From NCBI GenBank assembly GCA_036744835.1, contig DAIOHD010000001.1, positions 736,064-800,063 on the forward strand: 64,000 bases of DNA. The letters run 5' to 3'. The notes beneath the pieces were generated by a model, which saw only the letters and a list, made by a program, of their open reading frames with translations, did no database searches and had not been told where the DNA came from. Made by a program: the position numbers and the translations under genes. Of this stretch, positions 10,325-61,349 are shown in pieces. Origin of the DNA: Candidatus Magasanikiibacteriota bacterium (GTDB lineage: Bacteria > Patescibacteriota > Patescibacteriia > Magasanikbacterales > GWA2-37-8). How positions within the stretch are numbered: the first letter of the stretch is position 1; every line of letters begins with the position of its first letter.

Positions 10325-10582
10325 CTATCTTACCGGTCTGAAAGATGGAATTTTTCTCTCCCATCTTTCCGTGATTTTACCGAATTTCAATACGCAAATG
10401 AAAATAACCTGAAACAGAAAACCCAGACAAAAACCTAAGAAAGCTTCAAACCGTTTTTTCATAAAAATCTCCCTGTTTTGGTTAAAAGGACCGGCAATAT
10501 TATAGCATAAAAAAGCCAATTTGTCAACCCGGCTTCGTCCGCCAGCTGGCGGACTACGCCGGACAAGGTCTTTATTTATCAA
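10325..10582 (-). CDS. possible small membrane protein (likely starting at internal MKKRFEAF...; ~45 aa)
   Basis: Short hydrophobic ORF with its own downstream terminator; weak. Confidence 0.2.
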   Translation of the reverse strand: MINKDLVRRSPPAGGRSRVDKLAFLCYNIAGPFNQNREIFMKKRFEAFLGFCLGFLFQVIFICVLKFGKITERWERKIPSFRPVR

Positions 10583-23690: not shown

Positions 23691-25289
23691 ATGGAAAGTA
23701 AAGAAAAAAAGCCAATTTTAGAGGATAAATACCCAGCTGAAAAAAGTTCTGATGATGAAAAAAGAATCAATGATTTTGATTTAAAAAAACCTCTAAAACA
23801 TAAGTGGTTTTGGTATGTTTTATCCGGACTATTGTTAATATTCCTGTCTTTTTTGACTTACCAAAATATTCAGGCTGCCAAAAATGGCAGTTTACAAATA
23901 CTGGAACCTAAAAAATTCGGTATTTTTAATACTGTTAAAAATTTTCTTTTTCATTCTGACAACATGCTAGAGGGGCAAAGAGATGACAGAATAAATATTT
24001 TATTACTTGGAATCGGTGGCCCTGGACACGATGGCCCCTATCTCTCCGACACCAACATTATTGCTAGTATAAAACCTAGTACCAAAGAAGTAGCAATGAT
24101 TTCTATCCCCCGTGATTTAGGAGTAAAGATAGGTGACAAAGGAGTAAATAAAATAAACTTTGCCAGTGCCTGGGGGGAAATAGAAAATCCCGGTCAAGGA
24201 GGTGAATATGCTCGTCAAATTTTTGAAAAAACTTTCAATTTAGACATTCCTTATTATGTAAGGTTGGATTTTAAAGCTTTTGAAGAAATCATAAATCTAG
24301 TTGGCGGAATAGAAGTTGAAATAAAAAATTCATTCATAGACCAAGCTTATCCCGGTCCAAATTACTCCTATCAAACAGTACAATTTGAAAAAGGTCTAGA
24401 ATTGATGGGTGGTTCACGTGCTTTAATTTACGCTCGTTCTCGTCATGGCACCAACGGAGAAAACTCTGATTTTGCTCGTTCTCGTAGACAGCAACAAATT
24501 ATGTCCTTGCTAAAAGATAAATTACTTTCTTTTGAAACTTATAGTAATCCTATAAAAATAAAAGAAATTTTAGAATCATTGTCTAAAAATATCAGCACCA
24601 ATCTCAATATCAGCCAAATTATTTATTTGGGCAATTTGGTACGCAACACTAAACAAGAAGAGATTAAAAATTTAGTTTTGGATAGTGGAGAAAATGGTTT
24701 TACCGTTCCTTATATTGGAAACGGGGGCGCTTTTATGCTTGCTCCTCGCGGAGGAAAACTAGATTATATCAACTATGCAATCACTAAAATTTTTGACAAT
24801 ATTACTACAACACCAAACTGGACTATGGTAATAAACGATGAATCTGTTTATCAATTTACTACGGAAAAAAACAGCGTTTCTTCAACAGATAAAAAACAAA
24901 CAATTCCTATCTGGCCAAATGTAAGAATAGAAATATTTAATGGAACCTGGCGTGGAGGTCTGGCTTCCCGCTATCAAAGCAAACTAAGCGATAATGGTTT
25001 TAATATTATATCTATCGGCAACGCAGAGGATAGACCTACAGAAAAAACTACAATTTATCTTATTAATAAAAACATTCAAGAAGAAATTATTCTTGCTTTA
25101 AACAAAGAAGTGCCGGGAAAAATTATTTCTTCTACTCCAGATTGGTATTTATCTAAATTTTCTCTTACTACCAATACCCTACCCAACAACTACGCCGGTC
25201 TAGAAGATGAAGAAATCGAACAAGAAATATTGACAAATCCGCTCATTTCTGATATAATTATCGTTCTTGGCACGGATGCAAAAGAATAA
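23691..25289 (+). CDS. LytR-CpsA-Psr (LCP) family cell-envelope phosphotransferase with C-terminal LytR_C-like domain
   Basis: N-terminal TM, LCP core LLLGIGGPGHDGPYLSDTNIIASIKP...MISIPRDL...INFASAWG. Confidence 0.85.
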   Translation: MESKEKKPILEDKYPAEKSSDDEKRINDFDLKKPLKHKWFWYVLSGLLLIFLSFLTYQNIQAAKNGSLQILEPKKFGIFNTVKNFLFHSDNMLEGQRDDRINILLLGIGGPGHDGPYLSDTNIIASIKPSTKEVAMISIPRDLGVKIGDKGVNKINFASAWGEIENPGQGGEYARQIFEKTFNLDIPYYVRLDFKAFEEIINLVGGIEVEIKNSFIDQAYPGPNYSYQTVQFEKGLELMGGSRALIYARSRHGTNGENSDFARSRRQQQIMSLLKDKLLSFETYSNPIKIKEILESLSKNISTNLNISQIIYLGNLVRNTKQEEIKNLVLDSGENGFTVPYIGNGGAFMLAPRGGKLDYINYAITKIFDNITTTPNWTMVINDESVYQFTTEKNSVSSTDKKQTIPIWPNVRIEIFNGTWRGGLASRYQSKLSDNGFNIISIGNAEDRPTEKTTIYLINKNIQEEIILALNKEVPGKIISSTPDWYLSKFSLTTNTLPNNYAGLEDEEIEQEILTNPLISDIIIVLGTDAKE

Positions 25290-54009: not shown

Positions 54010-55200
54010 TTATTTAATAATTTTTGTTACTACTCCAGCACCTACAGTACGACCACCTTCACGAATAGCGAAGTTCATCTTATCTTCCATAGCTACCGGT
54101 TTAATAAGCTTCACAACTAGATTAACGGTATCACCAGGCATAACCATTTCAGTGCCGGCAGGTAAAGTAACTTCACCTGTTACATCAGTAGTACGAATAT
54201 AAAATTGAGGTTTATATCCGTTAAAGAATGGTTTATGACGACCGCCTTCTTCTTGTTTCAAAACGTAAATTTGAGCTTCGTATTCGGTATGAGGAGTAAT
54301 AGAACCAGGTTTGGCTAAAACCATACCTCTTTCTACATCTTCTTTTTTAGTACCGCGAAGAAGTAATCCGGCGTTATCTCCAGCTTGACCTTCTTTAAGT
54401 TGTTTATTAAACATTTCAATACCGGTTATTACGGTTTTGGAAGTTTCTTCTTTCAAACCAACAATCTCAATTTCATCATTAACATGGATAATACCACGTT
54501 CAATACGACCAGTAACTACAGTACCACGGCCTTCAATAGAAAATACATCTTCAACTGGCATCAAGAAAGGTTTTTCAACATCACGTTGAGGAGTTGGAAT
54601 GTATTCATCAACCGCTTTCATCAAATCCATAATAGGTTTGATGGCAGTTTCATCAGTTGGATTTTCCAAAGCTTTCAAAGCGGAACCACGAATAATAGGA
54701 GTGGTGTCACCAGGAAATTTATATTTTTTGAGCAAATCACGAACTTCTGCTTCTACCAAATCAATCAATTCCGGATCAGAAACTTGATCAACTTTGTTTA
54801 AGAAAACAATAATATAAGGCACACCTACTTGACGAGCAAGCACAATGTGTTCGCGAGTTTGAGGCATCGGACCGTCAGTAGCGGAAACTACAAGAATAGC
54901 ACCGTCCATTTGAGCAGCACCTGTAATCATGTTTTTCACATAATCAGCATGTCCAGGACAATCAACATGAGCGTAGTGACGAGCTTCTGATTCATATTCT
55001 ACATGGGCAGTAGAAATAGTAATACCACGAGCTTTTGATTCTGGAGCTTTGTCCAAATCATCAACGCCCTTATTTTGAGCGGCCAAACCTTTTGCAGCTA
55101 AAGTCTGCAAAATAGCGGCGGTAAGAGTTGTTTTGCCATGGTCAACGTGGCCGATAGTGCCGATGTTGACGTGTGGCTTACTTCTAACAAACTCAGCCAT
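54010..55200 (-). CDS. tuf: elongation factor Tu
   Basis: [30 protein letters not shown]...; start at 55198-55200. Confidence 0.95.
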
Positions 55201-55475
55201 ATTGGTTAACATAAATATTGCGGTACTCTGCCCGAGTGGTCGAGCTTAAGTTTTGTAATCCAACCGCGAAAAAATATTTTTAAATTAAAAAATGTTATCA
55301 AACAACAGCTCCTAATCTATAATTTAGATTAATAGCTTTTTTTTAATAGCTTTTGCATTATAACAGATTATTTATTTTTTGGCAAGAGGGCAGATGTGGA
55401 CATTTTGTGCACCGTTTAGCCACCCTCTATTTTGCTTATTGCTTATGACTTATCGTTTTATATATGCTATATGCT

Positions 55476-56057
55476 TTATTCAACTGGTTCTAAATAAAAT
55501 CTTTCTTCTTCCTCCGGAATGCCAGCTAGGTCTTCTTCTTGAAAAAAAGCATTGTTAAAAAACTCTTGATCGGGATCATTCTTTTTACGTAATTTTTGTT
55601 CAATTTCCTCTTTTTTTATATCACGACGGCGAAATAAATCTTGAGTGTCAAGAACATCTTTTAAAGAAGATAGACCGGGGCCAAGTGGTTTTTTTCTCTC
55701 AATACGGGCAAAATTTTCAAAATCAACATTTTTTCTATCTTCTTTGATAAATTGTTCTACGGCTTTTTCAATGCTATTTTTTTCTCTATTTTTACGTAAA
55801 ATTTCCTCGAATTCTTCATATTTTTGCTTTTCTTCCTGTAAGGAGTGCCAAAAAGCAATTTCTTTATTAACCTTTTCTAACATCTCTGTTTCATTAAGAT
55901 TAGCCACAATTTGACGATGCGTGCCTGCAGTTAAACGTTCGTATTCAAAAGCCGGTAAAATAACGTATAAATCACCATTTTCGCTATCAGCCAAAACCCC
56001 CCTACCTTCTGTTTGGCGTAATAATTTAAACAATTCTTTTAAAATTTTATTAAGCAT
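55476..56057 (-). CDS. hypothetical protein (charged, helical; no recognisable domain), co-oriented with and upstream of tuf
   Basis: 193-aa ORF; part of the island separating fusA from tuf. Confidence 0.45.
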   Translation of the reverse strand: MLNKILKELFKLLRQTEGRGVLADSENGDLYVILPAFEYERLTAGTHRQIVANLNETEMLEKVNKEIAFWHSLQEEKQKYEEFEEILRKNREKNSIEKAVEQFIKEDRKNVDFENFARIERKKPLGPGLSSLKDVLDTQDLFRRRDIKKEEIEQKLRKKNDPDQEFFNNAFFQEEDLAGIPEEEERFYLEPVE

Positions 56058-56246
56058 ACAAATAATTATTTAAAAAGTTTTTTAATTGTAGCATTGATTA
56101 GCAAAAAGTCAAGCCGGACTTCGGAATATAGACTACGATGATACGAAATATTGGCTATTTTGCTTTTTTTTGATTTTGTGATAAAATATTTATAGAATTA
56201 AAAAATCTATTTTGGCTAATTTTAGCTAAAATACAACAAAAAGGCC

Positions 56247-56275
56247 TTGACAAAAATGCTAAAATGTGCTATAAT
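56247..56275 (+). promoter_or_regulatory. perfect-consensus sigma70 promoter TTGACA-17 bp-TATAAT driving the plus-strand island genes
   Basis: -35 at 56247-56252, -10 at 56270-56275. The track ORF ATG at 56247 lies inside this promoter, so the CDS start is more likely the downstream MEFLKK. Confidence 0.5.
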
Positions 56276-56309
56276 TAAACGTTATATAGCTAAGATTAAA
56301 CAAAAAAAT

Positions 56310-57167
56310 ATGGAATTTTTAAAAAAATCATTTGAAACAATAAAAAATAAAATCAATTCTCAAGAAAAAAAATCCAAAACTTGGGAATCCAAAATCGGCA
56401 ACTTAAGTAAAGAATATTTAAGCAATCTTGAAAACGACTTTACTCAACTAAACGCCGAGGTTTTAAAAACAAAAATAAAATTTCTCGGCAAAACAGAAAG
56501 TGGCGAATCAATATTAACTTCAGGATTTTCCAGAAAAGAATTGGTCTCACCAAAAGAAATCGGGGAAACCGAAGGTGGTGGTGTAATTTATGAACATTCA
56601 CCTCTTTATAATTTTATAAAAGAAGCGGTTGAACTAACAAAAAACTGGCAAGAAAAAATAACTTCTGAAAAATTAACCGACGAAGAAAAAAAGATTTTAA
56701 ACAATACCTTAAAAATAAAAATTCAAAGTTTAAAAAACAGCTTATTTGACATTCGCCATCAAGCAGATCCCGATAAAGCCAAAAAAGATGTTTTAAAGAA
56801 AGCAAAACTATATTTTCACGAAGAAGGTTTAAAAACAAACGAACTAAGTAATATTGATGAATGTATTGCTAAAATTCAAAACTTAGCCGAAACTTATAGT
56901 CCAGAAGAAAGCAGTGATGATTCTATTCGCCAAGCCGTAATTTTGATAGGCAGAATTTCCACTGAAGAAAAAACCGAACCCAAAAAACTGATCTTTGATT
57001 TAAAAAGTATTTTTTCCAATCCAGACAAAAAAGATATTGAAACTTTTTATGAAAAATTGCTTGGTTTTTTTGATACTGTGGAAAATATTCAAAAAAATCA
57101 AACTAGCTCGATTTTAAAAGATGATGAAACTCAAATCATGGGACCACCGCCAGCTTTTAATGCTTAA
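56310..57167 (+). CDS. hypothetical protein (285 aa from MEFLKKSF...), helical, no recognisable domain
   Basis: Long ORF downstream of consensus promoter. Confidence 0.5.
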   Translation: MEFLKKSFETIKNKINSQEKKSKTWESKIGNLSKEYLSNLENDFTQLNAEVLKTKIKFLGKTESGESILTSGFSRKELVSPKEIGETEGGGVIYEHSPLYNFIKEAVELTKNWQEKITSEKLTDEEKKILNNTLKIKIQSLKNSLFDIRHQADPDKAKKDVLKKAKLYFHEEGLKTNELSNIDECIAKIQNLAETYSPEESSDDSIRQAVILIGRISTEEKTEPKKLIFDLKSIFSNPDKKDIETFYEKLLGFFDTVENIQKNQTSSILKDDETQIMGPPPAFNA

Positions 57168-57197
57168 AATTATAAATAATTTAACCTAACAAATTAT

Positions 57198-57740
57198 ATG
57201 GGACTAGAAACCACGGGTTATATCCCGCCGGACTATAAACATTTTAAGACACCGGAAACATCTAAAAAATCTTTAACAAAAAATTCTATGGAAAAAAAAG
57301 TAACTCGCGAAGAAATGAGTGATATTTTGATGGAACGCCCAAAAATTGGAACTGATGAACTCTACAAAATATTAACGGAAGATTTAGACAGAGAAAAAGA
57401 GGAGGAATTAAGAAAAAAAGCAAAAAAAGAAGAGATGGTTGATCAAATTATATTAAACATGAAAGAATATTTAAATTCTCCCGAGCATGCCAAAAAAACC
57501 CAAGAAAATCTGTTTAAAGCCATAAGAGAAGCTATTAAAACCATAGAAGAACAGGGTGAAGAAATAATTAAACTAAAAATTGCCGGCCATAATACAGGAG
57601 CAAAAAAAGCACAGCCTATTCCACGAGAATTTAAAGGTAAAATTTTAGAAGGTACGGATGATGAAGAAGAAACAAAAATAGGAATTAATCCTTTACTTGA
57701 AGAAAATTATAATGAAACTGGAAAAGAAGCTAATTCTTAA
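57198..57740 (+). CDS. hypothetical Lys/Glu-rich coiled-coil protein
   Basis: 180-aa ORF, 30 bp after preceding gene. Confidence 0.45.
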   Translation: MGLETTGYIPPDYKHFKTPETSKKSLTKNSMEKKVTREEMSDILMERPKIGTDELYKILTEDLDREKEEELRKKAKKEEMVDQIILNMKEYLNSPEHAKKTQENLFKAIREAIKTIEEQGEEIIKLKIAGHNTGAKKAQPIPREFKGKILEGTDDEEETKIGINPLLEENYNETGKEANS

Positions 57741-57775
57741 AAAAATTGTAAATTAAAATAAATAATTTTAACTTT

Positions 57776-58180
57776 ATGTTTGAAGGAATGAAAAATTTTT
57801 TTAGTTCACCTCCCGATAAAAAAATCTCTGGTAAAAAAGTAGAGACTATCAGTTCAACTACACGAAAAAGTCAAGAAAAACCGTCTTACAAAAATACCGT
57901 CGGTTATGATGAAAACCTGGATAAAGGAGGAGTAATAATAGATTGGGGAAAAAATACTGATAATAGCAATAGTGGAACCAAAGAAGCCTACAAAGTAATT
58001 CTTGATGAACAAATGAAAGGAACTAACTTCCAAAACCGTCCTGATGCTATTCCTTTCAAAAAAGCTGACCCTAATTTTGTCGGAATGTCCGGAGATACAA
58101 AAACTTATGAAATTAATCCCGATGAAATTGATCTTAAAAAAACAAGAGATAAAATAGACAAGATGCGTCCTGCGGCTTAA
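57776..58180 (+). CDS. hypothetical protein
   Basis: 134-aa ORF, followed by bidirectional terminator. Confidence 0.45.
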   Translation: MFEGMKNFFSSPPDKKISGKKVETISSTTRKSQEKPSYKNTVGYDENLDKGGVIIDWGKNTDNSNSGTKEAYKVILDEQMKGTNFQNRPDAIPFKKADPNFVGMSGDTKTYEINPDEIDLKKTRDKIDKMRPAA

Positions 58181-58189
58181 AAAATAAAA

Positions 58190-58226
58190 ATAAAAACGAC
58201 CCAAAATCAAAGGGTCGTTTTTATTT
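58190..58226. terminator. bidirectional rho-independent terminator shared by fusA (minus) and the plus-strand island (aaaacgaccc-aaaatcaaa-gggtcgtttt)
   Basis: 10-bp stem with A-run and T-run on both sides. Confidence 0.65.
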
Positions 58227-58236
58227 TATTTTATTT

Positions 58237-60312
58237 TTATTTCTTTTTTCCGGTAATAATATTTTGTGCAACATTACCAGGCACCTCAGCATAATGAGAA
58301 AATTCCATAGTAGAACTGGCACGACCCTGAGTAATATTACGTAAGTTGGTGGTATAACCAAACATAGATGCCAACGGTACGATGGCACGTACGGCTTTGA
58401 GCTGACCACGATCAGTCATTTCTTGAATTTGACCGCGTTTGGAATTAAGATCACCAATCACATCTCCCATGAATTGTTCTGGAGTCAAAACTTCCACTTT
58501 CATAATAGGTTCTAAAATTATCGGGTTAGCTTTACGACAAGCATCTTGAAAAGCCATGGAGCCGGCCATTTTGAAAGCAGCTTCAGAAGAATCAACTTCG
58601 TGATAAGAGCCATCATAACAAGTAACTTTAACGTCCACTACCGGATACCCAGCTTGGATACCACGAGTAATAGCTTCTTTAACACCTTTTTCAATCGCCG
58701 GTAAATATTCACGAGGAACAACGCCACCTTTAACAGCATCAATAAATTCAAAACCTTTATTTTCTTCTTGTGGTTCCACGCGCAACCAACAGTGACCGTA
58801 TTGACCTCGACCACCGGATTGTTTGACATATTTACCCTCGGCTTCAGCGGAATTTTTAATAGTTTCTTTATAAGCAACCTGTGGCGCCCCGACATTGGCT
58901 TCAACTTTAAATTCACGCTTCATACGATCCACGATAATTTCCAAGTGAAGCTCACCCATACCTTCAATAATAGTTTGCAAAGTTTCTTCATCGGTGTGAA
59001 CCTTGAAAGTCGGATCTTCTTCAGTAAGTTTTTGTAAAGCCATGCCGATTTTTTCTTGATCAACTTTGGTCTTTGGCTCAATAGCAACGGAAATAACCGG
59101 TTCCGGAAAAGTAATCTTTTCCAAAACAATCGGTTTATTTTCATCACAAAGAGTGTCTCCGGTAACAGTATCTTTGAGCCCAATAGCAGCCGCAATTTCT
59201 CCGGCAAAAACCTCGTTAACATCCTCACGGTGATTAGAATGCATACGCACAATACGAGAAATTCTTTCTTTTTCACCTTTGGTGGAATTAAGCATATAGG
59301 AACCGGCTGAAATTTTTCCTGAATAAACACGGAAAAAAATAAGACGACCAACAAATGGATCAGTAGCCACTTTAAAAGCAAGCGCAGAAAAAGGCTCGTC
59401 GTCATTGGCTTTGCGAGTCATCGGTTCGTCGGTATCCGGATTAAGACCTTTGATCTCTGGTAAATCGGTTGGAGCAGGTAAATAATAATTTACAGCATCA
59501 AGTCCTAATTGAACACCGATATTTCCTAAAGCACTACCACACATCACTGGAAAAACTCTACTGGCAATTACCATTTCACGAATAGCTTTTTTAATTTCTT
59601 CGACAGTTAGTGTTTCACCATTTAAAAATTTGCCCATAGTTTCATCGTTGGCTTCAGAAATTTTTTCAATCATTTCCGCACGATATTTAACAACGTTTTC
59701 TTTCATGTCTTCCGGAATAGGAATTTCCACAATATTTTCACCATTTTTCCCTTCAAATTTATAAGCTTTTTCTTCTATCAAATCAACGATACCTGAAAAA
59801 GTGCTTTCAGCACCAATTGGTAATTGAATAGCTACTGCATCTTTACTCAAACGTTCTTTAATAGAAGCCAAGGTCATATAAAAATCCGCACCCATCTTAT
59901 CCATTTTATTGGCGAAAGCGATACGAGGTACATTATATTTAGTAGCTTGATGCCAAACGGTTTCTGATTGAGGTTCTACACCTTGAGATCCGTCAAACAA
60001 AGCAACAGCTCCATCAAGTACACGCAAAGAACGCTCTACCTCTACGGTAAAGTCTACGTGTCCGGGAGTATCAATCAAATTGATACGATGGTTTTTCCAA
60101 AAACAAGTGGTGGCAGCAGAAGTGATAGTAATACCACGCTCTTTTTCTTGTTCCATCCAATCCATTTCTGCGGCCCCTTCGTGCACTTCACCAATTTTAT
60201 GTTTGCGTCCGGTATAAAACAAAACGCGTTCGGAAAAAGTGGTTTTACCGGCATCAATGTGAGCCATGATCCCGATATTTCTAGTTTTATCCAAAGGATA
60301 TTCACGAGGCAT
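58237..60312 (-). CDS. fusA: elongation factor G
   Basis: [25 protein letters not shown]..., 691 aa five-domain EF-G. Confidence 0.95.
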
Positions 60313-60423: not shown

Positions 60424-60900
60424 TTATTTGGCGAATCTGGCAAAATGAGCAAAAGCTTTATTAGCTTCGGCCATTCTGTGGACATCATCGCGTTTTTTGA
60501 TAGCATCACCCAATCCTTGAGAGGCTTCAAATAAAACAGTAGCTAATTTTTGAGCCATTGGCTGTCCTTTTTTTGCTTGAGCCGCTCCGATAATCCATCT
60601 GAAAGCTAAAGAATTTTGGCGTTCGCCACGAACTGGAAGTGGAACTTGATAATTGGCACCACCGACTCTTTTGGAACGTACTTCAACTTGAGGAGATACA
60701 GTACGAACAGCTTCTTCAAAAACACCCATGGCGTCTTTTTTGGCCAATAAAGCTATTTTTTCCAAAGCTTCATAAACTACTCTTTGAGCGGTATTTTTTT
60801 TGCCGTCTTGCATCACATAATTGATAAATTTAGCCAATAATACACTACCGTATTTTGGATCGGCAACAATACTTCTTTTTATTGCTTTTTTTCCACGCAT
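60424..60900 (-). CDS. rpsG: 30S ribosomal protein S7
   Basis: MRGKKAIKRSIVADPKYGS... Confidence 0.95.
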   Translation of the reverse strand: MRGKKAIKRSIVADPKYGSVLLAKFINYVMQDGKKNTAQRVVYEALEKIALLAKKDAMGVFEEAVRTVSPQVEVRSKRVGGANYQVPLPVRGERQNSLAFRWIIGAAQAKKGQPMAQKLATVLFEASQGLGDAIKKRDDVHRMAEANKAFAHFARFAK

Positions 60901-60920: not shown

Positions 60921-61349
60921 TTATGCTTTCTTGGCTTTCGGTCTCTTTGTACCGTAAACACTTCGACCACGACGACGACTTTCAATACCTTGAGTATCAA
61001 AAACACCACGTACAATATGATAACGAACACCTGGTAAATCTTTTACTCTACCACCGCGAATCAAAACTATAGAGTGTTCTTGAAGATTATGTCCTTCTCC
61101 AGGAATATAAGCGATAACCTCTACACCATTACTTAAACGAACTTTGGCGACTTTACGCAAAGCGGAGTTTGGTTTTTTTGGAGTAGTGGTATAAACTTTG
61201 GTGCAAACACCTCGTTTAAAAGCGCATCCTTTGGCAAATACGGTTTTACGACGATGTAAATTATCAATCGTAAATTGTAAAGCTGGATTTTTGCTTTTAA
61301 CCACCTTACTTTTGCGCCCTTTTCTGATAACTTGGTTAATTGTCGGCAT
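60921..61349 (-). CDS. rpsL: 30S ribosomal protein S12
   Basis: [24 protein letters not shown]...[11 protein letters not shown]. Confidence 0.95.

Follow-up and report, generated by a model that had tools for sequence, protein, structure and literature searches.

The fusA-tuf interval of a Candidatus Magasanikbacteria genome: a lineage-wide gene beside tuf, a clade-restricted operon and a predicted leader RNA

The DNA considered here, hereafter the window, is a stretch of 64,000 nucleotides (nt) from contig DAIOHD010000001.1 (positions 736,064 to 800,063) of a low-GC (35%) genome of Candidatus Magasanikbacteria, within the Patescibacteria or candidate phyla radiation (CPR). Its subject is the interval between two str genes, fusA and tuf, which encode the elongation factors EF-G and EF-Tu. 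A preliminary description had the str genes interrupted at this point, and open reading frame (ORF) calls across the window agree: the fusA-tuf gap measures 3.0 kb and contains four genes. Three of these (orf1, orf2 and orf3) lie on the plus strand and are predicted to form a unit of their own that converges on fusA, with a consensus promoter and a shared terminator, while the fourth, orfA, sits upstream of tuf on the operon strand, as first described. The genes of the locus are as follows.

54010-55212, minus strand: tuf (EF-Tu), followed by rpsJ and rplC; Pfam domains found on orthologues.
55476-56057, minus strand: orfA, 193 residues, acidic, directly preceding tuf.
56310-57167, plus strand: orf1, 285 residues, modelled as helical with two beta-hairpins bearing G(E/K)TE(G/S)G motifs.
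57198-57740, plus strand: orf2, 180 residues, acidic and hydrophilic, with a conserved N-terminal MxxETxGYxP motif.
57776-58180, plus strand: orf3, 134 residues, a basic, hydrophilic protein that is accessory to the module.
58237-60312, minus strand: fusA (EF-G), the end of the rpsL-rpsG-fusA unit; Pfam EF-G domains found on an identical product.
60424-60900, minus strand: rpsG, from the ORF call.
60921-61349, minus strand: rpsL, from the ORF call.

All four proteins of the gap are unnamed singletons in a protein-cluster look-up, and searches against Pfam, PHROG, NCBIfam and PADLOC returned no match of any weight. They are soluble, charged and mostly helical, as had been proposed. The classical contiguity of the str operon fails at this locus, given the 3.0-kb gap, its four genes, a strong bidirectional terminator and the separate conserved promoters predicted for orfA and tuf.

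The significance of this gap depends on what occupies the same junction in related genomes. Eighty loci with the closest fusA were fetched from one-genome-per-species assemblies using fusA as query, and the junction was surveyed in the 66 fusA-anchored loci with enough downstream sequence. In 35 of these tuf lies less than 1 kb from fusA, with the gap filled by orfA; in 12 the distance is 1-3 kb and in six it is 3-10 kb, and in 13 no tuf is present within at least 3 kb of fusA. Among the Magasanikbacteria-like loci (fusA at least 72% identical), tuf lies within 1 kb in only one of 21. The interruption had been considered unexpected at one of the most conserved operon junctions in bacteria, but in these genomes the junction is usually open, and throughout the Magasanikbacteria it is broken, with varied content. 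The content differs from lineage to lineage, and the genes are unrelated. At the fusA-orfA boundary, one locus carries a gene for a 2038-residue protein along with ABC-transporter genes (L008, 12224-20898), another a trmD-like gene (L013, 12167-12910) and a third a purF-like amidotransferase gene (L007, 13267-14649). In a fourth (L070, 14865-15543), the fusA-orfA gap encodes a helix-turn-helix protein and then a Fic/Doc-like protein with an HPFENGNKR motif. Doc toxins phosphorylate EF-Tu; as a single case, the presence of a Doc-like gene beside the tuf cluster may be a coincidence.

The constant feature of the junction is orfA. When a profile built from its obvious relatives was run over the fusA-anchored loci, 51 of the 54 with tuf in reach had an orfA-family ORF between the two elongation-factor genes, and the orfA of the window matched this profile at 4e-32. 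A second sample, independent of the fusA set, consisted of 80 metagenome loci anchored on orfA itself with a narrower orfA alignment. Here, tuf directly follows orfA in 58 of 59 loci with enough sequence, and fusA ends no more than 400 nt upstream of orfA in 46 of 60. The gap between fusA and orfA exceeds 300 nt in 16 of 51 loci and that between orfA and tuf exceeds 500 nt in two of 51; because insertions almost always fall between fusA and orfA and rarely between orfA and tuf, orfA is tied to tuf. A profile search places at least 907 database proteins in the family, all of them hypothetical and lacking a Pfam domain, and those with a named source all come from Patescibacteria. This comparison of sequences makes orfA a conserved occupant of the fusA-tuf interval throughout the lineage and no part of an insertion. 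The features of the protein and of its upstream region are listed below.

N-terminal signature, family-wide: L..hI.L.kKTGD+hIVhD....d..fVVMsL.eYE.L.
Helix signature, family-wide: LTEeELLDKINRDIAiWKS.
Middle of the protein: a variable acidic linker.
C-terminal motif: EEEE(R/K)FYLEPVE in Magasanikbacteria and W.IP..RK..AEEIIEEDRQYLE in Falkowbacteria-like genomes.
56085-56112, minus strand: promoter-like site of orfA, TTGACT-16-TACAAT with TG, a 10/12 match.

In the window, the C-terminal motif reads EEEERFYLEPVE. This C-terminus, a family-wide short motif after the acidic tail, is coded at 55476-55515 and looks like a partner-binding peptide. Upstream of the gene, the complement of the -35 element, AAGTCAA, is conserved in relatives. 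A YefM-like TGTACA operator was also considered as a feature of the family and rejected, as the motif is confined to the clade of the window.

An AlphaFold2 model computed from an 86-sequence alignment gives orfA an alpha-beta-beta-alpha N-domain, with a predicted local distance difference test (pLDDT) score of about 83, then one long helix, residues 56-114, and at the end a disordered tail. In one-by-one Pfam scans, 60 of the 86 members match PF02604 (PhdYeFM_antitox) at E<=1, the best at 2.6e-5, and no other Pfam family recurs comparably among them. Alignment of the orfA profile to Escherichia coli YefM with hhalign yields 75% probability over 26 columns that span the beta-hairpin and helix. 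The earlier view that none of the proteins has a recognisable domain therefore stands for orf1-3 but has to be qualified for the orfA family, given these weak matches.

The plus-strand genes are distributed narrowly. A word-indexed search of 5.8 billion protein clusters returned five relatives of orf1 at 58-100% identity, and an exhaustive profile search of 1.84 billion representatives returned four orf1 clusters in total, down to 25% identity. All orf1 homologues (25-73% identity) occur in the same order, in which orfA and tuf are transcribed in one direction and orf1, orf2 and none to two further small ORFs in the other, the latter converging on fusA. Accordingly, the number of genes in the module varies from two to four among relatives. 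The two closest species-level genomes (fusA 93% and 91% identical) each carry an ORF of 286 residues and another of 103 or 128 residues in the same place and orientation. These are divergent homologues of orf1 and orf2, with which they share GETEGGG, I(Q/E)NLAExY and the orf2 N-terminal MxxETxGxxP. Orthologues of orf2 come after orf1 in every member of the clade. The gene orf3 occurs in three or four lineages: it has counterparts in L085, L092 and, weakly, L007, and it is absent from L082, L089, L095, L002 and L003.

The products of orf1-3 are hydrophilic, with a grand average of hydropathy (GRAVY) of -0.7 to -1.1. In the AlphaFold2 model, orf1 is helical apart from two beta-hairpins, with the G(E/K)TE(G/S)G motifs as their turns, and its distant homologues all keep two copies of (I/V)GETEGGGxI (IGETEGGGEI twice). 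The N-terminus of orf2, MGLETTGYIPP (57198-57240), echoes the orf1 motif G(E/K)TE(G/S)G(x)I (56490-56600, residues 60-95). The profile of orf1 had no match among PDB sequences, and members of the orf1 and orf2/orf3 families scanned singly against Pfam gave no recurrent family; in the profile and structure searches that had been proposed for these proteins, orf1-3 thus stay without any known match.

All four genes, orfA and orf1-3, are real and under purifying selection. The ratio of nonsynonymous to synonymous divergence (dN/dS), computed between the genes of the window and orthologues from other samples, is 0.14-0.19 for orf1 (dS 0.9-1.7), 0.19-0.22 for well-aligned orthologues of orf2 (dS 1.4-1.9), 0.17 for orf3 against L085 (dS 0.8) and 0.10-0.13 for orfA (dS 1.0-1.5), compared with 0.05 for fusA (dS 0.9) and 0.07 for tuf (dS 0.7). 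By this measure, the four proteins change at two to four times the rate of EF-G and EF-Tu. The preliminary description had allowed for frames without coding signal; the signal is instead strong, at 0.14-0.22 for orf1-3. Because all orf1 homologues start with MEF, the ATG at 56310 is favoured over the start of a 303-residue product that the gene caller placed inside the promoter.

The non-coding DNA between orfA and tuf, 55213-55475, is the most conserved of the locus in the alignment of relatives. It contains the following predicted elements.

55220-55268, minus strand: structured RNA motif, a clade variant without P2, ending a few bases before the tuf start codon.
55304-55340, minus strand: hairpin in the tuf 5' leader, from folding and compensatory arm changes in the alignment.
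55357-55385, minus strand: tuf promoter, TTGCCA-17-TGTTATAAT, an 11/12 match, near-invariant in eight relatives.
55395-55413, minus strand: direct repeats upstream of the tuf promoter, TGTGCACA-N3-TGTCCACA, with 11-bp spacing.

The promoter and repeats are almost invariant though nearby synonymous sites are close to saturated. The repeat block, exact in 10 loci and confined to the clade of the window, is a candidate regulator site. In the hairpin at 55304-55340, the arms read AUUAAUC/GAUUAG in some relatives and GUUAACC/GGUUAU in others, with a conserved GUUUGAUAACAUUUUUU tract after them, and the element could be an attenuator.

Closer to tuf, the structured motif has a full form in the wider genome set, which consists of ACGGCUGG, a P2 hairpin, AAnAAC, a P3 hairpin and GCCGU; examples are found at L051 12496-12550, L028 12835-12891 and L078 13164-13217. 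A covariance model built from 20 sequences (R1) matched 31 sites in 1.39 Mb, every one of them immediately 5' of tuf and on its strand. In the alignment, 91% of cells pair, as against 82% when shuffled and 45-63% with slid partners; 13 of 16 pairs change on both sides, and none of 500 shuffles reached any of five measures. Searches of Rfam 15 gave no relevant match at E<=1 in this region of the window or in the loci of ten relatives. The signature CGG[CT]TGG accompanies orfA in 105 loci and is missing from 15 orfA loci, several of which carry variant P1 sequences, and three loci without orfA also lack it; these counts are phylogenetically confounded. As judged from covariation and position, a structured RNA absent from Rfam is present directly 5' of tuf across the sampled bacteria. 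No Shine-Dalgarno sequence is recognisable in the clade of the window upstream of orf1, orf2, orf3 or tuf (56290-56312, 57180-57200, 57760-57778 and 55213-55225), unlike the Falkowbacteria-type tuf leaders, which end in AAGGA.

The predicted regulatory elements of the orf1-3 cassette, together with similar promoters elsewhere in the window, are listed below.

56213-56228: palindrome TGGCTAAnnTTAGCCA, centred about 26 bp upstream of the orf1 -35, in conserved alignment columns.
56247-56275, plus strand: sigma-70 promoter of orf1-3, TTGACA-17-TGcTATAAT, with extended -10 TG.
58179-58235, both strands: bidirectional intrinsic terminator common to fusA and orf1-3, from an inverted repeat and its fold.
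10499-10527, minus strand: perfect promoter, TTGACA-17-TG.TATAAT.
25230-25258, plus strand: perfect promoter of the same form.

The perfect TTGACA-17-TATAAT of orf1-3 was correctly reported at first, matching consensus at 12/12 positions. Its -35 and extended -10 are invariant in five relatives, in an alignment that averages 63% identity. It had also been called unusually strong; perfect matches, however, number three in the window (starting at 10499, 25230 and 56247) against 0.02 expected, and sites with at most one mismatch, which include the tuf and rpsL promoters, number seven in the 64 kb where 1.0 would be expected. Because of these three perfect sites, the promoter is far from chance but not peculiar to the locus; by prediction, this genome makes wide use of near-consensus extended -10 promoters. 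The palindrome has four matches with at most two mismatches in the window against 0.16 expected, and its half-site (TGGCTAA in relatives) recurs just after the orf1 -10. This suggests a candidate site for a regulatory protein, and hence an operon that may be regulated rather than constitutive.

At the other end of the cassette, fusA was said to finish in a bidirectional terminator of its own, and fold and conserved position confirm the predicted hairpin, at 58179-58235. Its arms (58179-58202 and 58212-58235) are 88% complementary and fold on both strands, with z = -7.1 (plus) and -6.1 (minus) relative to shuffles. The consensus scanner missed it because the loop is 9 nt. Relatives carry a hairpin at the same place with other stem sequences, flanked by A- and T-runs. 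The element thus has the attributes of an intrinsic bidirectional terminator, namely a GC-rich hairpin between an A-run and a T-run, stability on both strands and a conserved position.

Since fusA has its own terminator, and orfA and tuf their own conserved promoters, the classical str operon appears already divided here: rpsL-rpsG-fusA with its terminator, then orfA, then tuf-rpsJ with a promoter and structured leader. Both tuf and rpsL have their own near-consensus promoter by prediction. Such a division would make the fusA-orfA boundary a permissive one, where genes accumulate. The interval is probably composed of two unrelated, vertically inherited parts, orfA and the clade-restricted ORFan operon orf1-3, neither of which is a recent foreign island. 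The first would be the local representative of a family of small acidic proteins specific to Patescibacteria, fixed in the str cluster immediately upstream of tuf, with an N-terminal domain read as divergent Phd/YefM-like but no toxin gene as its partner. It may act as a dimer that binds nucleic acid or associates with EF-Tu, in the service of the tuf/S10 unit, and not as an antitoxin. The second, orf1-orf2(-orf3), would have entered the fusA-orfA boundary in the ancestor of a narrow, approximately genus-level clade of Magasanikbacteria and stayed in place since, under purifying selection but with a rate of change several times that of its neighbours. The operon is predicted to be transcribed from its own conserved consensus promoter and to end at the hairpin that also terminates fusA. 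That the cassette was inherited vertically and diverged in place follows from its same position in relatives, its native composition and its lack of mobility marks. Its products may associate through the repeated GETEGGG beta-hairpin motif echoed at the N-terminus of orf2; with low confidence, they can be pictured as abundant, soluble cytoplasmic proteins that interact through this hairpin.

A further step would join the orfA family and the covarying tuf-leader RNA into an undescribed, Patescibacteria-specific control module for EF-Tu synthesis, an idea that we hold tentatively and consider somewhat unlikely. Under this proposal, a toxin-less protein derived from Phd/YefM would bind the tuf promoter repeats or the leader or, alternatively, orfA would bind EF-Tu through its conserved acidic C-terminal motif. 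Either way, binding by orfA would set the output of EF-Tu and the S10 operon, and the orf1-3 cassette would be a clade-specific addition at the boundary that this arrangement created.

Several points weigh against the two-part account of the interval. The N-domain of orfA is only weakly assigned as divergent Phd/YefM-like: the orfA of the window itself has no Pfam match at E<=1, YefM scores no better than E=0.36 in a PDB sequence search, and fold searches are dominated by the long helix, with insignificant MarR-type regulators as the top Foldseek matches. Confidence in the orf1 model is moderate, with pLDDT 66 overall and about 80-90 for residues 30-150, and Foldseek retrieved nothing for it from the PDB at E<1. 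Promoters, terminator and the division into transcription units are all predicted from sequence. Finally, "Patescibacteria-wide" refers here to the sampled genomes, ABY1-like relatives of this one that are labelled as Magasanik-, Falkow-, Uhr- and Parcubacteria.

Other explanations concern the role or the origin of these genes. The products of orf1-3 could be proteins that an episymbiont exports or uses in interaction with its host, with antagonistic pressure behind their fast evolution. Rapid divergence relative to the neighbouring genes and a module that varies from two to four genes would fit this, as would the endings -NA, -NS, -NT and -AA shared by unrelated module proteins. However, no signal peptide or hydrophobic segment is present in orf1-3 (top 19-residue hydropathy <=0.16), dN/dS of 0.14-0.22 reflects purifying and not positive selection overall, and no secretion-system genes are adjacent; the explanation is unlikely. 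On the endings themselves, a small residue closes about 26 of 28 module proteins across the clade by our own count. These proteins belong to at least four unrelated families, and the residue before the last is usually N, A or G and in some cases H (-ANS, -FNA, -PAA, -KNA, -GNS and -KAA). The sites in the window are 57150-57167, 57723-57740 and 58163-58180 for orf1, orf2 and orf3, and the island ORFs of L082-L097 share the feature; elsewhere in the window, A, S or T is the last residue for only eight of 61 genes. The shared ending could be a degron or sorting signal.

A role for orf1-3 as clade-specific translation accessory factors, working with EF-G, EF-Tu or the ribosome, would follow from guilt by association with the str/S10 cluster. 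In its favour, the location has been stable through extensive sequence divergence and the promoter is comparable in strength to those of tuf and rpsL. Yet the cassette is on the opposite strand, as a separate unit in a very narrow clade, and because other lineages hold unrelated genes at the same boundary (ABC transporter, trmD-like, the 2038-residue protein and Doc-like), position is weak evidence for such a role, to which we give little credence.

The resemblance to PF02604 raises another possibility, that orfA is a type II antitoxin with its toxin nearby, either in orf1-3 or in an unrecognised gene. The similarity, though weak, is consistent, and orfA is a small acidic protein with a disordered C-terminal tail, as Phd/YefM antitoxins are. 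Were orfA to bind operators as a dimer in the manner of such proteins, the repeats at 55395-55413 and the palindrome at 56213-56228 would be candidate sites. Against this, no cognate toxin gene of the YoeB, Doc or RelE type lies downstream of orfA, where tuf is found in 58 of 59 and 51 of 54 loci of the two samples, and no toxin family appears among the library matches. Most orfA members lack orf1-3 as neighbours, these being divergently transcribed and limited to one clade. Moreover, orfA is fixed beside an essential gene in hundreds of genomes, whereas toxin-antitoxin loci are patchy. Because the defining toxin partner is absent, orfA is not filed as an antitoxin, and we judge that function to be very improbable.

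The preliminary description presented the four genes as an island, which would be a recent horizontally acquired segment or the remnant of a mobile element that split an intact str operon. The region does have a GC content of 0.27-0.31, below that of fusA and tuf; orf1-3 are ORFans without homologues outside a narrow clade, and the module is predicted to have its own promoter and terminator. However, an island acquired in one recent step fits poorly, since orfA is lineage-wide and orf1-orf2(-orf3) occupies the same place in every sampled close relative, with position and orientation kept down to 25% identity. Neither patchy presence nor another context was found for the orf1 family, every detected member of which is at this junction. 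Composition is native: the genes have z-scores for GC at third codon positions (GC3) of -0.8 to -1.2 relative to the other 60 genes of the window, and their codon-usage cosine is 0.86-0.93 against a background of 0.91 +/- 0.05. No integrase, transposase or other mobility gene was detected among the four proteins (Pfam, PHROG, NCBIfam and PADLOC) or the island ORFs of relatives, no tRNA lies within 18 kb, tRNA and Rfam scans of the interval were empty, and viral contigs scanned with orf1, orf2 and orf3 gave no relatives. The search for island boundaries found nothing meaningful, as the only flanking repeats apart from the terminator hairpin are A/T-rich low-complexity matches, and 55213-55475 holds the tuf promoter and leader instead. 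A recent island is therefore highly improbable. The weakest alternative takes the plus-strand ORFs for frames open by chance in spacer DNA; the region is indeed AT-rich, and the proteins are of low complexity and rich in lysine and glutamate. It can be dismissed, as frames and lengths are conserved, dN/dS is 0.14-0.22 at dS 0.8-1.9 and protein motifs persist at 25% identity.

Once relatives are compared, the apparently surprising insertion becomes much less striking, since an open fusA-tuf link is routine in Magasanikbacteria and the gap holds native genes. What makes the locus interesting is chiefly the orfA family and the leader RNA of tuf, not the insertion itself. The former is an unannotated, unnamed family (at least 907 members, without a Pfam domain) fixed beside tuf in a large group of ultra-small bacteria, and the latter, a predicted covarying RNA abutting the tuf start codon and absent from Rfam, is a useful outcome in its own right. 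Together, they offer testable handles on translation-factor expression in the Patescibacteria, experimentally almost a blank, and a literature search on genes between fusA and tuf in CPR/Patescibacteria found nothing relevant. The tightly localised, fast-evolving ORFan operon is in turn an illustration of new genes becoming established at the operon boundaries of reduced genomes.

Among known systems, Phd/YefM proteins (PF02604) are the closest to orfA, which resembles them in its beta-hairpin and helix core (VhD..d..fVVMsL.eYE.L), its small size and acidity, and a flexible C-terminal part with a conserved short motif. Unlike these proteins, orfA has no cognate toxin gene and no first beta-strand, and instead of a patchy, mobile distribution it has a constant place upstream of tuf in hundreds of genomes. 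An additional conserved helix (LTEeELLDKINRDIAiWKS) and a C-terminal FYLEP/RQYLE motif also set it apart, and no member was seen at the curated threshold of Pfam for PF02604.

The predicted tuf leader invites comparison with the leader RNAs of ribosomal-protein and translation-factor genes, such as the S10 leader of E. coli, which is bound by L4. To our knowledge, no leader of this kind has been known upstream of tuf. Most such leader RNAs are reported to be narrowly distributed (PMC3616713). The tuf motif differs from the known examples in having no Rfam match, and resembles them in that it is compact, covaries and abuts the ribosome-binding region of a translation operon's first gene.

Separation of fusA from tuf has a precedent in Rickettsia prowazekii, where the two genes are apart and tuf adjoins the S10 genes. 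This split arose through recombination between tuf copies. As in Rickettsia, the genome here is small, fusA-tuf co-transcription is predicted to be lost and tuf heads the S10 genes, but fusA and tuf remain neighbours, with lineage-specific genes filling the gap.

In other phyla, the translation operon cluster shows small insertions at operon boundaries and complete disconnection in some descendants, and such insertions relax selection for synteny (PMC8046335). Unlike those cases, the break described here falls within one classical operon, between fusA and tuf, and not between operons, the inserted ORFans are on the opposite strand and orfA is an additional, fixed lineage-specific gene. The overall pattern is nonetheless alike, in that a few unrelated genes are inserted at a boundary and the flanking genes are disconnected in related lineages.

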